DNA from: a virus
Direction: 5' to 3' (one strand)
Virus genome (UHGV): UHGV-0885819
DNA: 13,646 nt
In this document: one piece after another, positions 2,303 through 11,217 of the stretch
Numbering within the stretch: position 1 is the stretch's first letter
Layout of the letters: each line of letters starts with the position of its first letter
Notes under the pieces: generated by a model
The model's input: the letters and a program-made list of their open reading frames with translations, nothing else
Database searches by the model: none
Told to the model about the DNA's origin: nothing
Position numbers and translations under genes: made by a program

Positions 2303-2803
2303 ATGACCCAGCATATTGGCGTAAAACTGATTAACGCCTTTCCGATGACGAGACAGGCATATAACGATTTTCGTGGCTGGCAGCTTCCTGCCGGAGAAAA
2401 CGGCGAGGAAGAAGGCTATCTGGTTGAATATCTGGATGGCGGAAAACCTAACACCGATCGCTTTGATGGCTACGTTAGCTGGAGTCCAAAAGAAGTATTC
2501 GAAAAGGCTTATCGTCCGGTATCAGGGCTAAGTTTCGGCCTTGCCATCGAAGCACTCAAACTGGGTAAGAAAGTTACCCGCGCTGGCTGGAATGGGAAAG
2601 GCATGTATCTGCAATTAGTTCAGCCACCGCAATCAGCCACTCCGAATGATTGGCGTTATGACGTTACATGTGGTGACGAGTATACATTTGTTCCTGGTGT
2701 AAAACTTCTTCCCTGGATTGGGATGAAGACTGCTGATTGTAAATTTGTTCCGTGGTTGGCGAGTCAGACTGATGTTCTGGCTGAAGACTGGCAAATCATT
2801 TAA
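2303..2803 (+). CDS. 166-aa two-domain accessory protein: unrecognised N-terminal domain plus a C-terminal DUF2829-like (Tad2-like) domain
   Basis: Clean ORF in the post-lysis accessory slot. The C-terminal half carries GWNGKGM and a [17 protein letters not shown] tail, which I recognise as DUF2829 hallmarks. The domain call is from memory, not from a search. Confidence 0.75.
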
Positions 2804-2819
2804 CCATGTAGGCATTACA

Positions 2820-2841
2820 AAGCCCATCTACTGGTGGGCTT
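2820..2841 (+). promoter_or_regulatory. Stem-loop in the 233-bp spacer after the 166-aa gene
   Basis: Perfect 7-bp stem AAGCCCA / TGGGCTT with an 8-nt loop and no following T-run. Confidence 0.3.
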
Positions 2842-3036
2842 GATAATGAAACCGGAATTTATTCTGGGCAACCAGTTACGGCAGTACAGCGAAACAACCC
2901 AAGCCAGTAAGTGGGGAAATAACACTGGCAGCCACTGAAAGATGAACCTCCAGCCTTATGGCAAAAAAGATTCTTTGTGGTGGCGGACTGATGGAAAGAC
3001 ATCCTAATCAAGCAACTACTCTACAGGGTCATAATT

Positions 3037-3375
3037 ATGAACGACCAGCAAATCGAAAAAGAAATCGTTGAGAAAGGCAAAACGGCACCGCGCGTTACGC
3101 CAGACCATATCGAAAGCATTATTCTTGCGGAAACGTACTTCACTGCTGCTGATGGGGCTATTGCAACTGGCGATGACTATCACGACAGTTTGGCTCTGCT
3201 GACATTTTGTGTATTGACTCTACAAAATGGCTTCACCGTCACCGGTGAAAGCGCTTGCGCCAGTCCTGAAAACTTTGATGCAGAAATTGGTCGGAAGATT
3301 GCCCGGCAAAATGCTGTAAACAAAATCTGGATGCTCGAAGGTTACTTGCTGAAGCAGAAGCTAAGCGAACAGTAG
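3037..3375 (+). CDS. Conserved phage protein of unknown function (112 aa), possibly the N4 gp49 / Sf6 gp66 family
   Basis: ORF preceded by an AGGG Shine-Dalgarno-like motif. Motifs YFTAADG and GESACASPENFDAEIGRKIA look familiar from lambdoid prophage proteins placed ahead of terminase genes; the family assignment is uncertain. Confidence 0.75.
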   Translation: MNDQQIEKEIVEKGKTAPRVTPDHIESIILAETYFTAADGAIATGDDYHDSLALLTFCVLTLQNGFTVTGESACASPENFDAEIGRKIARQNAVNKIWMLEGYLLKQKLSEQ

Positions 3376-3691: not shown

Positions 3692-3756
3692 GCGTTAGAC
3701 CTGTTCACTACCGGAGCATGACGCTCAACCTGAAATAACAACTAAGTGAGATGAAT

Positions 3757-4245
3757 ATGGCAGCACCAAAGGGCAACCGATTTTGGGAGGCCCGCAGTAG
3801 TCATGGGCGAAATCCTAAATTCGAATCGCCTGAGGCGCTGTGGGCTGCTTGTTGTGAATACTTCGAGTGGGTAGAAGCTAACCCGCTATGGGAGATGAAG
3901 GCGTTCTCGTATCAGGGTGAAGTGATACAAGAGCCTATCGCCAAGATGCGAGCGATGACCATTACCGGCCTCACTCTGTTCATTGATGTGACGCTTGAAA
4001 CATGGCGCACATATCGCCTGCGAGAAGATTTATCTGAAGTCGTTACGCGAGCAGAGCAGGTCATCTACGACCAGAAATTCTCTGGCGCAGCCGCTGACCT
4101 TCTCAACGCTAACATAATCGCCCGTGATTTGGGCCTCAAAGAGCAGTCGCAAGTTGAAGACGTGACACCTGATAAGGGAGATCGCGATAAGCGGCGCTCT
4201 CGTATCAAGGAGCTATTCAACCGTGGAACTGGACGCGATTCTTGA
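3757..4245 (+). CDS. 3: Terminase small subunit, P22 gp3-like (162 aa from ATG 3757; an in-frame ATG at 3751 is an alternative start)
   Basis: Protein [48 protein letters not shown]... matches P22 gp3 as I recall it, including length, and is followed by the large terminase gene. Confidence 0.85.
4024..4045 (+). other. pac-like site for headful packaging initiation, inside the small terminase gene
   Basis: GAAGATTTATCTGAAGTCGTTA matches the 22-bp P22 pac sequence as I recall it, and it lies within the gp3 homologue (peptide REDLSEVVT) as the P22 pac site does. Confidence 0.5.
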
Positions 4246-5722
4246 TAACCTGAGCGACGAAGAGCAAATAGAATTGCTCGAACTACTCGAAGAAGAAGAG
4301 AACTACCGGAACACACACCTGCTATATGAATTTACGCCATACAGCAAACAGCGTGAGTTCATCGACGCCGGACATGACTATCCAGAGCGATGTTTTATGG
4401 CTGGTAACCAGCTTGGTAAGTCATTTACTGGTGCTGCTGAAGTCGCGTTTCACCTTACAGGGCGTTATCCGGGCACAAAAGGCTATCCTGCTGATGGTAA
4501 ATATGGCGGTGAGTGGAAAGGTAAGCGTTTCTATGAGCCTGTTGTCTTTTGGATTGGTGGCGAGACAAACGAGACTGTAACCAAAACGACTCAACGCATC
4601 CTGTGCGGTCGTATCGAAGAGAATGATGAGCCTGGCTACGGTTCCATACCGAAAGAAGACATCATTAGCTGGAAGAAGTCTCCTTTCTTTCCGAACCTTG
4701 TTGATCATCTTCTGGTTAAGCATCACACGGCTGATGGCGTTGAAGATGGCATTTCAATCTGCTACTTCAAGCCATACTCGCAAGGCCGCGCTCGCTGGCA
4801 GGGTGACACAATCCACGGCGTGTGGTTTGACGAAGAGCCACCATACAGCATTTATGGCGAAGGTCTTACCCGTACCAACAAATACGGGCAATTCTCAATT
4901 CTGACGTTTACCCCGCTGATGGGGATGTCTGACGTTGTTACCAAGTTACTGAAGAATCCCAGCAAGTCGCAGAAAGTGGTCAACATGACCATCTATGACG
5001 CTGAGCACTACACCGACGAGCAGAAAGAGCAAATCATCGCATCCTATCCTGAGCATGAGAGAGAGGCGCGTGCTCGCGGTATTCCTACGATGGGTAGTGG
5101 TCGAATCTTCCAGATACCGGAAGAGACGATTAAGTGTCAGCCGTTCGAGTGTCCTGATCACTTCTACGTAATTGGCGGGATGGATTTTGGATGGGATCAC
5201 CCGCAGGCGCAGGTTCAGCTTTGGTGGGATAAGGACGCAGACACAATCTACGTTTCACGCGTGTGGAAGGCGAAAGAAAAAACAGCCGTTCAGGCATGGG
5301 GAGCTGTTAAATCATGGGCGCATAAAGTGCCAACCGCATGGCCTCATGACGGAAACCAGCACGAGAAGGGCGGCGGTGAGCAGCTCAAAGGGCAGTATGC
5401 AGATGCTGGTTTTATGATGTTGCAGGAGCATGCGACATGGCCTGATGGCGGTAATGCTGTGGAGCCTGGCATCACTGAATTGCGCGACATGATGCTCGAT
5501 GGTCGCTTCAAAGTATTCAACACCTGTGAGCCATTCTTTGAGGAGTTCCGCCTCTATCACCGTGATGAAAACGGGAAAATCGTCAAGCTTAACGACGACG
5601 TGCTATCCGCCGTTCGCTATGCATACATGATGCGCCGCTTCGCAAAAATGATGCGCGACATCAAAAAACCAAAAGAGAAAAAGATACCAGCCCCAATCAG
5701 GCCCATCGCACGGAGAACTTAA
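4223..5722 (+). CDS. 2: Terminase large subunit, P22 gp2-like (499 aa, GTG start overlapping the end of the small terminase gene by 23 nt)
   Basis: Protein [37 protein letters not shown]... with an ATPase-like region and a C-terminal nuclease region. AAGGAG lies 10 nt upstream of the GTG; length matches P22 gp2. Confidence 0.9.
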
Positions 5723-8813: not shown

Positions 8814-10108
8814 TGGCATTAAATGAAGGTCAACTGGTCACGTATGCTCTGGATGAAATCATCGAAACCGTCCAGAACCTGACGCCAATGGCGTCCAAAG
8901 TGACAAAATACACCCCTCCGGCAGAATCCATGCAGCGTTCAAGCAACACCGTGTGGATGCCTGTTGAGCAGGAAGCGCCAACCCAGACTGGCTGGGATTT
9001 AACTGGCAACGCAACCGGGATTCTGGAACTCTCCGTGAAGTGCAACATGGGCGATCCGGATAACGATTTCTTCGAGCTTCGTGCAGATGACCTGCGTGAT
9101 GAGCGTTCTTACCGTCGCCGCATCCAGGCATCCGCCAAAAAACTGGCGAATAACATTGAGTCAGCGATTGCCAAACAGGCAACTGAAATGGGCTCGCTTG
9201 TTGTTCACGATACCCGCGCAATTGGTCCATCTACTGGCCTGTCTGGCTGGGATTTTGTGTCTGATGCAGAGCGCCTGATGTTCTCCCGTGAGCTAAACCG
9301 CGATATGGGCATCAGTTACTTCCTGAACCCTGACGATTACCGCAAAGCAGGCCGCAACCTGGTAGATGGCGACATCTTCGGGCGAGTTCCTGAAGAAGCG
9401 TATCGCAACGGTACTATTCAGCGTCAGATTGCTGGCTTTGATGAAATTCTTCGCTCACCTAAACTTCCGGCAGTTACCAAGTCAACCGCTACTGGTGTAA
9501 CTGTTTCTGGTGCGCAGAAGTTTAAGCCGCAGGCATACACTCTTGATACCGATGGTAACAAAGAGAACGTCGACAACCGTGTTGCAACGGTGACCGTATC
9601 CTCCACCACCGGATTTAAGCGCGGCGACAAAATCAGCTTCACTGGCGTGAAATTCCTGTCTCAGATGGCGAAGAACGTGCTGACTGATGACGCGACTTTC
9701 TCAATCACCCGTGTGATCGATGGTACTCACATCGAAATCACGCCGAAGCCGATTGCGCTTGATGACGCTTCACTGACAAAAGAAGAGAAGGCTTACGCTA
9801 ACGTAAACACCTCTCTTGCTGATACCACTCCGGTAAACGTTCTGAACGTGGCAACGACCACCGCTAACGTGTTCTGGGCTGATGACTCAATCCGTCTGCT
9901 GTCTCAGCCGATCCCGGTAACCCATGAACTGTTTGCTGGCATGAAAACGTCTTCCTTCAGCATTCCTGGTATTGGTGTTAACGGCATCTTCGCAACGCAG
10001 GGTGATATCAACACTCTGTCTGGTAAGTGCCGTATTGCTGTGTGGTATTCAGCATGTGCTGTACGACCAGAGGCAATTGGTGTTGGTCTGCCTAACCAGA
10101 CCGCGTGA
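8813..10108 (+). CDS. 5: Major coat protein, P22 gp5-like (431 aa)
   Basis: Protein [54 protein letters not shown]... resembles P22 coat protein. Start overlaps the scaffold stop (TAATG). Confidence 0.9.
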
Positions 10109-10113
10109 TAACC

Positions 10114-10140
10114 AGAGGGAGCTTCGGCTCCCTTTTCTAT
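10114..10140 (+). terminator. Tetraloop hairpin terminator or attenuator just after the coat gene
   Basis: Stem GAGGGAGC (10114-10121) / GCTCCCTT (10126-10133) closed by a TTCG tetraloop and followed by TTTTCTATT. Confidence 0.5.
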
Positions 10141-10151
10141 TGGAGATACCA

Positions 10152-10739
10152 ATGAGCGTAATGATTTTTCAGGCTGGCGGAGATACCAAAATATGGGGGC
10201 GCAAGCTGAAAACGAAAACCGTTGATCCTGATGATGTAGCTGTGCACTTAGCAAATGGCTGGTATAAGCACCCTGACGATGTTCCTGATGATCCTCTTGT
10301 TGGTGATCAAATTGGGAGTGTTGGCGTAGGTGAAACTTCCCCAGTTGATATGGGCGAAGTGTCCGACGGTTATCACACTTTTAACGAGCTTTACGCTCAC
10401 CGAGTGCGCCTCTTCTCATCGCTGATGCATGCTTACGCTGAGCTTTCGTGGTGGTCTCGCAAACACAGTGACGGTGAAGAGTGGGATGGCTGGATTATTG
10501 CTGGTATCACCACTCCAGAAGGCGAAATCACTTATCACCTACCTGTTGAAGAAATCGAGTTCCTTCCTGAAGGTACTGAGCTTGAGTTCGGGAAAGAGTG
10601 GGATGGTCATGAAGCAAATGATGTTCTTGGACGACTCCTGAGTTTGCGTCCGGCCATTGCAGAGCCAGAAGAAAAACAGCGTAAAAAGCCTGGTCGAAAA
10701 CCTAAGGCGGCAGCAGATGAACCTGACAACGAAGGGTGA
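10152..10739 (+). CDS. Unrecognised acidic protein (195 aa) between the coat and gp4 genes
   Basis: ATG at 10152 with GGAG 6 nt upstream; its 3' end overlaps the gp4 start by 23 nt. By my count the product has roughly twice as many acidic as basic residues, plus a lysine-rich tail ([11 protein letters not shown]). The upstream part of the six-frame ORF (9972-10151) overlaps coat and is not coding. Confidence 0.7.
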
Positions 10740-11217
10740 TTTAGTTCTTGCGGCATTACGTAAGCTCGGTGTGGCATCAAATGCCACGTTAACCGATGTC
10801 GAACCGCAGTCTATGGAAGACGGCGTTAACGACCTTGAAATGATGATGGCTGAATGGCTTGGCGGTGATGCGTCACCTGGTATCAACGTTGGCTACATTT
10901 TTGCTGATGCAGATGTTGCTCCGGATCCGGGCGATGAGCACGGCTTATCAAATAACGCTATTAATGCCGTCATTTTCAACCTTGCCTGCCGCATTGCTCC
11001 AGATTATGCGCTGGAAGCGTCTGCAAAACTTATAACCACTGCCAGATACGGGAAAGAGCGACTCGTCAAACTGTCTGCAATGGACAGAGCAAAAGCCGCT
11101 AAATGTAAGTCCGGTTATCCAAACCGTATGCCTGTTGGTAGCGGTAACCAGTTGGCGAAGTGGAACGGTTGGAATTACTTCCACCGAAAGGAACCTTGCG
11201 ATAACGGGAGCGAATAA
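10717..11217 (+). CDS. 4: Tail accessory factor, P22 gp4-like (166 aa from ATG 10717)
   Basis: Protein [47 protein letters not shown]... matches P22 gp4 in sequence and length. The upstream TTG at 10657 in the ORF track is unlikely to be the start. Confidence 0.85.

Follow-up and report, generated by a model that had tools for sequence, protein, structure and literature searches.

What does the protein encoded between the lysis genes and the packaging genes in an Sf6-like temperate phage do, and what is added by its N-terminal half, for which curated libraries hold no match? The question is raised by the open reading frame (ORF) at positions 2303-2803 of the virus genome UHGV-0885819, for which the whole stretch of 13,646 nucleotides (nt; hereafter, the window) was analysed. 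A preliminary description, made from the letters alone, had divided the product into an unrecognised N-terminal module and a C-terminal module of the DUF2829/Tad2 type, and this division has held on both sides. Briefly, the C-terminal half is, on sequence evidence, a Tad2 domain, and the N-terminal half (hereafter, the N-module) belongs to a large unnamed family that is repeatedly found joined to phage sponges for immune signals. We consider it likely that the protein as a whole combines a Tad2 sponge with an autonomous, sponge-associated module. The ORF is composed as follows:

2303-2803, + strand: coding sequence of 166 amino acids (aa), ATG start, two domains (N-module and Tad2)
2303-2524, + strand: N-module, aa 1-74, of an unnamed "sponge-associated" family, predicted beta-beta-alpha-beta-beta-alpha
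2525-2800, + strand: Tad2/DUF2829 domain, aa 75-166 (PF11195, E 8e-25 on the C-terminal half alone)
2612-2713, + strand: hypervariable insertion, aa 104-137, between beta2 and beta3 of the Tad2 domain, counterpart of the cyclic-dinucleotide-pocket insertion of HgmTad2

The profile searches proposed in the preliminary description, with the full protein and with each half, placed PF11195 ("Thoeris anti-defense 2-like") in the C-terminal half (aa 77-166; E 1.8e-24; 86.5 bits, the cut-off being 25), with the match spanning profile positions 2-73 of 73, and returned nothing for the N-terminal half. The motifs on which the first call relied are all present, namely GWNGKGM at aa 95-101, a 17-letter C-terminal motif at aa 150-166, and a stretch beginning GYLVEY in the N-terminal half. 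Solved Tad2 structures were also matched by sequence (ModTad2 9eib, E 2.6e-16; Tad2 8v3e, 3e-16; SPO1 8sme, 3.3e-14; HgmTad2 8kbi, 1.9e-12; SptTad2 8wjd, 3.6e-12), and the C-terminal half searched alone matched solved Tad2 proteins at E 5e-17 to 2e-12. The AlphaFold2 (AF2) model of the full protein has a predicted local distance difference test (pLDDT) score of 85, with helices (H) and strands (E) at H78-86, E91-93, E102-106, then the insertion, E138-142, E148-150, H155-159, and E163-165. This order (alpha1-beta1-beta2-insertion-beta3-beta4-alpha3-beta5) is the one described for SPO1 Tad2, the comparison being one of element order. The Tad2 call itself is not new, as relatives are already annotated DUF2829 or "anti-CRISPR," and Kapi1_043 of phage vB_EcoP_Kapi1 was proposed to be Tad2-like in January 2026, from annotation tools only (PMC12922286).

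The residues of the putative binding pocket bear on what the Tad2 half may hold. According to the structure papers, SPO1 Tad2 contacts 1''-3' glycocyclic ADP-ribose (gcADPR, here 3'cADPR) through W25, N26, I63, T65, D67, H71, W73, S76, T78, and D79, and HgmTad2 contacts gcADPR through W21, N22, G23, M76, A78, T82, V84, W87, L88, S90, T92, and D93. By HMMER alignments, the predicted gcADPR pocket of the window protein consists of W96, N97, M141, T143, D145, V149, W151, S154, T156, and D157. Eight of the ten SPO1 contacts are identical (W96, N97, T143, D145, W151, S154, T156, and D157), and the remaining two, I63 to M141 and H71 to V149, carry the residues present in HgmTad2 (M76 and V84). In an alignment of 55 homologues with both domains, no variation is seen at W96, W151, and D157 and hardly any at N97, S154, Q155, and T156. 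The SQTD motif agrees with the gcADPR binders SPO1 and HgmTad2, whereas the His-ADPR binder ModTad2 has SVSD instead. Family membership and conservation of the pocket residues are thereby directly supported. As judged from homology, the Tad2 half probably works as a signal sponge, and 3'cADPR would be its most likely ligand, a preference that we hold with moderate confidence.

A second pocket, of the CBASS (cyclic oligonucleotide-based antiphage signalling system) type, is not supported by the alignments. In HgmTad2, cyclic dinucleotides are contacted by R31, P32, D34, L36, K46, S47, F70, T71, and N85 (structure paper); only P32 has an identical counterpart (P108), and L36, K46, and N85 fall in gaps, in a region that is variable and in which the alignment is unreliable. 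The insertion at aa 104-137 is the most variable block among the 55 homologues and is poorly predicted by AF2 (pLDDT below 50 for aa 117-129), and the differences between Kapi1_043 and the window protein are almost confined to it. This insertion also appears as an allelic hot spot, with E. coli prophage matches split around aa 104-137.

A different function is implied by the annotation of some relatives. In phages Huey, Louie, and Mimir124, Pharokka-style annotation names the gene product an anti-CRISPR protein of the AcrIIA7 type. This label derives from AcrIIA7, which is the same protein as HgmTad2 and to which the window protein does show sequence similarity (PDB 8kbi and 9kzr; E 1e-11 to 1e-12). 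To our knowledge, E. coli has no type II CRISPR-Cas. Moreover, Li et al. report that Cas9 inhibition by HgmTad2 and other Tad2 homologues was not reproducible, in vitro or in vivo, and that Thoeris and CBASS, not CRISPR-Cas9, were inhibited; Yirmiya et al. take the same view on Tad2 and CRISPR. We regard an AcrIIA7-type activity as very improbable for this protein, and the "anti-CRISPR" label on Tad2-like genes as misleading for annotation.

As a Tad2 homologue, the gene is ordinary, and the N-module is its interesting part. The claim that this half is a separate, unrecognised module was borne out, as it folds confidently alone (AF2 pLDDT 94.5) and has no match in curated libraries. Pfam models gave no match for the N-terminal 71 aa even at E<=10, and neither did NCBIfam and PADLOC models for the N-module. 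Searching the PDB by sequence profile returned chance-level matches only, and by Foldseek no related fold (best E 2.1); a structure search of BFVD recovered family members only, all without function. DUF1653 (PF07866; PDB 3BE3) was considered as a relative and set aside, as it fell short in structural and sequence similarity. In the searchable literature, no paper naming the family or noting its fusion pattern was found, and a search for the motif SWSPKEVF and similar ones returned no paper. In PHROGs, the full 166-aa protein matches phrog_872 (unknown function, E 9e-69), and the N-terminal half alone also matches PHROGs of other lengths, all of them unknown-function families. That this half matches families of different lengths was a first hint of a mobile module.

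A profile of the N-module, made from the window sequence and 19 short homologues (alignment A1), retrieved 3,538 cluster representatives (clustering at 50% identity) with a limit of E<=1e-3; with E<=1e-10, the number was 1,642. By tblastn, the module was found in 136 GenBank (INPHARED) phage records, including N4, many N4-like phages, the prototypical crAssphage, and phages of Vibrio, Pseudomonas, Klebsiella, Acinetobacter, Rhizobium, and Clostridium. On many contigs the module is encoded by a gene of its own, 56-76 aa long, and no recognisable sponge neighbour was seen in the surroundings of such genes. One of them (P0061, 73 aa, short form, seen in 47 index blocks), located at 3001-3222 in metagenomic phage contigs, lies directly after an endolysin-like gene (ELLD and PG_binding_1) and downstream of a reverse transcriptase, possibly part of a diversity-generating retroelement, and is followed by about 1.1 kb free of called genes.

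A clue to the role of the N-module is the company it keeps. The 148 best-scoring of the 3,538 representatives were scanned against Pfam, and the partners were Tad2 (52), Sequestin (PF21825; 44), Acb4 (PF13876; 16), and the Acb2/Tad1 hairpin (2). Non-sponge Pfam domains were seen in two members only, one with AP2 and one with HNH. Parsed by domain order, the set comprised N-Tad2 (46), N-Sequestin (31), N-Acb4 (7), Acb4-N-Sequestin (6), and Acb4-N (3), besides N-Seq-Tad2, N-Tad2-Seq, Seq-N, Tad2-N, N-Seq-Acb4, and N-Acb4-Seq, with the N-module placed N-terminally in most. In addition, an RyR-like domain is joined to the N-module in one representative and in gp68 of Pectobacterium phage CB1. When 49 unclassified partner segments were clustered, mostly singletons resulted and no robust new partner family was found. 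The fusion network of the N-module is thus directly observed, and it links the family to five sponge families (Tad2, Sequestin, Acb4, Acb2/Tad1, and RyR Tad), also in the model phages N4 (gp49) and crAssphage (gp41). Sequestin is a 3'cADPR sponge and Acb4 a cyclic GMP-AMP (cGAMP) sponge, and Sequestin was itself discovered by asking which Pfam families fuse to Tad2 and Acb4 (Tal et al. 2025, PMC12265669). Since the N-module has no Pfam model, it is invisible to a Pfam-based fusion screen. As far as the searchable literature shows, the fusion census of the N-module is new.

Two individual cases were recorded alongside the census. In crAssphage (Carjivirus communis), gp41, annotated only as PF13876-family, consists of a short-form N-module followed by Acb4 (L007:1501-1950). 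The other, the recurrent protein P0128 (215 aa, 14 contigs), joins an N-module and the first half of Tad2 to a P22-like portal fragment (PF16510), and probably arose by deletion or recombination within a decayed prophage.

Residue conservation in the N-module is the same whichever partner it has. Near-invariant positions are K8, R17, Y20, N21, R24, W26, P29, E32, D36, G38, E42, Y43, D45, N50, Y57, S59, W60, S61, P62, F66, and Y70, and in each single-partner class conservation is at least 82% for K8, R17, Y20, N21, R24, W26, E32, D36, E42, Y43, D45, N50, Y57, S59, W60, and S61 (D45 reaches only 69% in the multi-partner class). This argues for a function that is independent of the partner. The module is also found on its own, it is joined to partners that form oligomers by themselves, its polar and aromatic residues are kept more strictly than a scaffold would demand, and its fusion behaviour is like that of proven sponge domains; for these reasons we favour, with some confidence, an autonomous anti-signalling function of its own. 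As to the form this would take, a dimer that binds a small molecule is the leading candidate, at a little under an even chance. Somewhat more tentatively still, the N-module may itself constitute a new anti-signalling family, most plausibly a homodimeric sponge for an immune nucleotide that the fusion partner leaves uncovered.

The sole member of the family with experimental data invites a more modest interpretation. CB1 gp68 was characterised as "RyR Tad" in a June 2026 preprint, which calls its N-terminal fold unknown, the only trace of the module in the literature searched; in the crystal, the N-domain exchanges its beta1 strand, completing a five-stranded sheet in the dimer, and type I Thoeris was not inhibited by the N-fragment on its own (bioRxiv 10.64898/2026.06.04.730250). 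Accordingly, the N-module could be purely structural, a domain-swap dimeriser that cross-links or stabilises sponge oligomers, for greater avidity or assemblies of higher order, and has no ligand of its own, with the window protein being a plain Tad2 sponge. In line with this, aa 2-5 form a strand in the full-length AF2 model and coil in the isolated-domain model, as would fit a strand that needs a partner, and the N-terminal placement in most architectures is compatible with it too. However, Tad2, Acb4, and Sequestin are homo-oligomers already, so that a mere dimeriser is not obviously needed, many polar residues of surface type hardly vary among representatives with an overall identity of about 40-55%, more than a scaffold usually requires, and RyR Tad carries a divergent short form in which the two most conserved loops are missing. 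On balance, we find an exclusively structural role rather unlikely.

Those two loops (aa 27-37 and 44-56) could also be read as a protein-binding surface, directed at a signal-producing enzyme (the Toll/interleukin-1 receptor (TIR) protein ThsB, or a CD-NTase) or at a host sensor of sponges such as Panoptes; fusion to a sponge would then give phages a block at two levels. The partners span Thoeris and CBASS sponges, which points to a role beyond any single ligand, and since sponge proteins, Acb4-Sequestin among them, set off Panoptes, a counter-measure that travels with sponges makes sense. There is precedent as well, in that Tad3-Tad6 are described as small, unrelated proteins that block ThsB by direct binding. 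But the conserved loops of the N-module are predicted to be ordered (pLDDT about 90-98), unlike those of Tad3-6, which are described as flexible; a preprint in which Tad3 is annotated in N4-like hot spots still treats the N-module fold as unknown; and no PDB match to the module was found by sequence or fold. We regard a protein-binding inhibitor as an improbable reading, and an autonomous function that acts on a small molecule remains the one that we prefer.

The gene is contained in an accessory cassette, the anatomy of which is directly supported and is delimited by two hairpins:

2251-2285, + strand: upstream hairpin (2251-2279) with U tract, intrinsic-terminator-like
2813-2848, + strand: downstream hairpin without U tract, beginning 10 nt past the stop codon

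The upstream element had been noticed before as a terminator ahead of the gene, and the folding data agree with this: a 9-bp stem with six GC pairs is followed by TTTTATT, with a free energy of -15 kcal/mol and a z-score of -3.4 against shuffles. This hairpin and the 27-nt leader that follows it are kept in phages IME10, Kapi1, and Huey and the DNA farther upstream differs, so the hairpin is taken as the left end of the cassette. When 2225-2302 of the window was compared with 3752-3976 and 2722-2946 of two related loci (L003 and L002), similarity was seen to restart exactly at the upstream hairpin. The downstream hairpin, on which the preliminary description is silent, is stronger (-19.9 kcal/mol, z-score -3.8), with none of 200 shuffles folding equally well; the cassette ends with it on the right, and it may make the transcript more stable. 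E. coli prophage matches to the cassette run on through it. Also, Sf6, Kapi1, and Huey have a gene-65-like small ORF (48 aa, signal peptide) between Rz and the cassette, and this ORF is missing from the window and from IME10.

Cassette-like DNA was found in 363 of 5,426 complete E. coli genomes, and only four of these cover at least 80% of the cassette, because the matches come in two pieces, parted near the centre of the Tad2 domain. Given this presence in host chromosomes and the insulation by hairpins on both sides, the gene might be a lysogenic-conversion moron, of use chiefly to the lysogen, either by buffering ADP-ribose (ADPR)-type or cyclic-nucleotide messengers of the host or by pre-loading the cell, so that an induced prophage evades the signalling defences of its host. 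The expression of the Kapi1 orthologue would suit such a role, since, of all Kapi1 genes, Kapi1_043 is reported to reach the highest expression when lysogens are cultured, whatever the condition, and the host has no Thoeris (January 2026 paper, PMC12922286). Yet strictly lytic phages (N4 and N4-like) share this architecture, no promoter was detected, and the high RNA levels could come from transcript stability conferred by the flanking hairpins. Such a role is, moreover, compatible with sponge biochemistry and would change only when the sponge matters. We give it a slim chance as the main function and retain the anti-defence interpretation.

That interpretation extends to the adjacent gene:

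3037-3375, + strand: Acb4-family gene, 112 aa (PF13876, N4 gp49/Sf6 gp66; E 1.8e-34)

It starts 234 nt downstream of ORF 2303-2803 and matches the SPO1 Acb4 structure 9e4w at E 1.2e-3. The PF13876 family has been identified as Acb4, an anti-CBASS cyclic-nucleotide sponge (PMC11722364). A like pair lies adjacent in phage N4, where gp48 is Acb4 and gp49 is the N-module with Tad2. From the family assignments of its two genes, the locus has the look of an anti-signalling island, and the pair would mark the post-lysis slot of Sf6-like phages as such.

Taken together, we propose that the ORF encodes a two-domain anti-defence protein, carried in a hairpin-bounded accessory cassette at the lysis/packaging junction of an Sf6-like temperate phage. 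By homology, the Tad2 domain would form a tetramer, with pockets between protomers enclosing the TIR-made Thoeris signal 1''-3' gcADPR. Withheld from the effector ThsA, this signal would no longer trigger abortive infection. The N-module would act as an autonomous module, probably dimerising by beta1-strand exchange, by analogy with RyR Tad, and could add a second anti-signalling activity through a binding site for a different small molecule. In combination with the adjacent Acb4-family gene, the locus might blunt both Thoeris and CBASS signalling.

Several points weigh against this proposal. Members of the Tad2 family bind 3'cADPR, His-ADPR, N7-cADPR, cUMP/cCMP, or cyclic dinucleotides, and with a family of such functional plasticity the ligand is not fixable from sequence. 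The fusion census extends to the 148 top scorers among 3,538 representatives, and some 43-44 of these have unclassified partners, many of which resemble frameshifted Tad2. The N-module is net acidic, and the experimental data on RyR Tad, divergent as it is, fit a purely structural role. As for expression, a promoter scan found no sigma-70-like promoter on the + strand between the upstream terminator and the ATG, and the Thoeris-free host of Kapi1 mentioned above belongs among these points as well.

Concerning its setting, the window is of the Sf6-like (Lederbergvirus) phage or prophage type, with Sf6, Kapi1, Huey, and HK620-type phages as relatives. Phage IME10 is the closest, with 94% identity across the lysis-to-terminase region. 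The genes run in the order Q antiterminator fragment, tRNA-Asn, tRNA-Thr, holin, endolysin, Rz/Rz1, and ORF 2303-2803, followed by the PF13876 gene (3037-3375), DUF2560, the small terminase gene terS (gp3), the large terminase gene terL, and the portal gene. The position between spanin and terminase genes given in the preliminary description is therefore right, with Rz/Rz1 on one side and terS/terL on the other. Located features of the locus are:

609-683, + strand: tRNA-Asn(GTT)
689-764, + strand: tRNA-Thr(TGT)
1787-2224: Rz spanin (PF03245)
1980-2171: Rz1-like ORF, embedded in Rz
3751-4245: terminase small subunit gp3
4223-5722: terminase large subunit

The two tRNA genes between the Q gene and the holin are an arrangement also found in Sf6 and Kapi1. 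Farther along, an ORF at 9972-10739 (+ strand) overlaps the 3' end of the coat gene, and its C-terminal part contains a WDGH domain (PF25311, E 2e-39). The start of this ORF is probably internal, and, placed between the coat gene and the ORF at 10657-11217, it may be another accessory gene.

Phage sponges for immune second messengers are a fast-growing field, in which recent families were found through fusions to known sponges. If the N-module binds a signal or an immune protein, this would explain the conserved half of thousands of proteins annotated "DUF2829" and add an anti-defence family. Should it be a sponge, the gene would be a natural dual inhibitor, and the family, with at least 3,538 50%-identity clusters, would be among the largest unrecognised anti-defence families. 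Even as a dimeriser only, it would still tell how phages build multi-sponge assemblies.

Comparison with known proteins places the window protein as follows. SPO1 Tad2 (gp34.65, PDB 8SME/8SMF) shares with its C-terminal 92 aa the PF11195 profile, the predicted alpha1-beta1-5 order, and the gcADPR-contact positions. However, SPO1 Tad2 is a single domain of 89 aa, whereas the window protein has 166 aa with an additional N-module of 74 aa, and the insertions between beta2 and beta3 (34 aa in the window protein versus 24 aa in SPO1 Tad2) are unrelated. With HgmTad2 (AcrIIA7; PDB 8KBI-8KBM), it shares the gcADPR pocket including the M/V variants, and WLASQTD is identical; HgmTad2, in contrast, has no N-module, and its second pocket for cGG and cGAMP is not recognisable in the window protein. 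The orthologues Kapi1_043 (75% identity), Huey CDS0064 (96%), and N4 gp49 (about 55%, N-module) all have the two-domain architecture, and the N-module of Kapi1_043 is 99% identical to that of the window. In Kapi1 and Huey, the gene occupies the same slot behind the same upstream hairpin and leader, and the Tad2 insertion differs between alleles. IME10 (RefSeq NC_019501.1) has an orthologous Tad2-like ORF at about 2804-3304 that is unannotated, as is everything between Rz and terS.

Two recently named anti-Thoeris families were considered for the N-module and are probably distinct from it. Lockin, a hexameric protein of curved beta structure, is said not to occur in INPHARED phages, whereas the N-module is present in 136 INPHARED records, and TadIV-1 is a two-helix dimer of Straboviridae. 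Tad3-6 are probably distinct from it too, as judged indirectly from the lack of any PDB match by sequence or fold. The N-domain of RyR Tad is a divergent homologue (34% identity; profile 33.4 bits, E 1.7e-12) and the only family member with structural data. As in the window protein, it is fused N-terminally to a gcADPR sponge domain; its sponge, however, is an all-helical RyR Repeat12-like domain and not Tad2, and its N-domain is a short form without the conserved RGWxLPxDEN and DGGKPN loops. Finally, the network of Sequestin and Acb4 resembles that of the N-module in that all are short, belong to phages and prophages, occur alone or fused and in variable order, and take part in triple fusions; the N-module differs from both in having no Pfam model and a beta-rich fold without a relative in the PDB.

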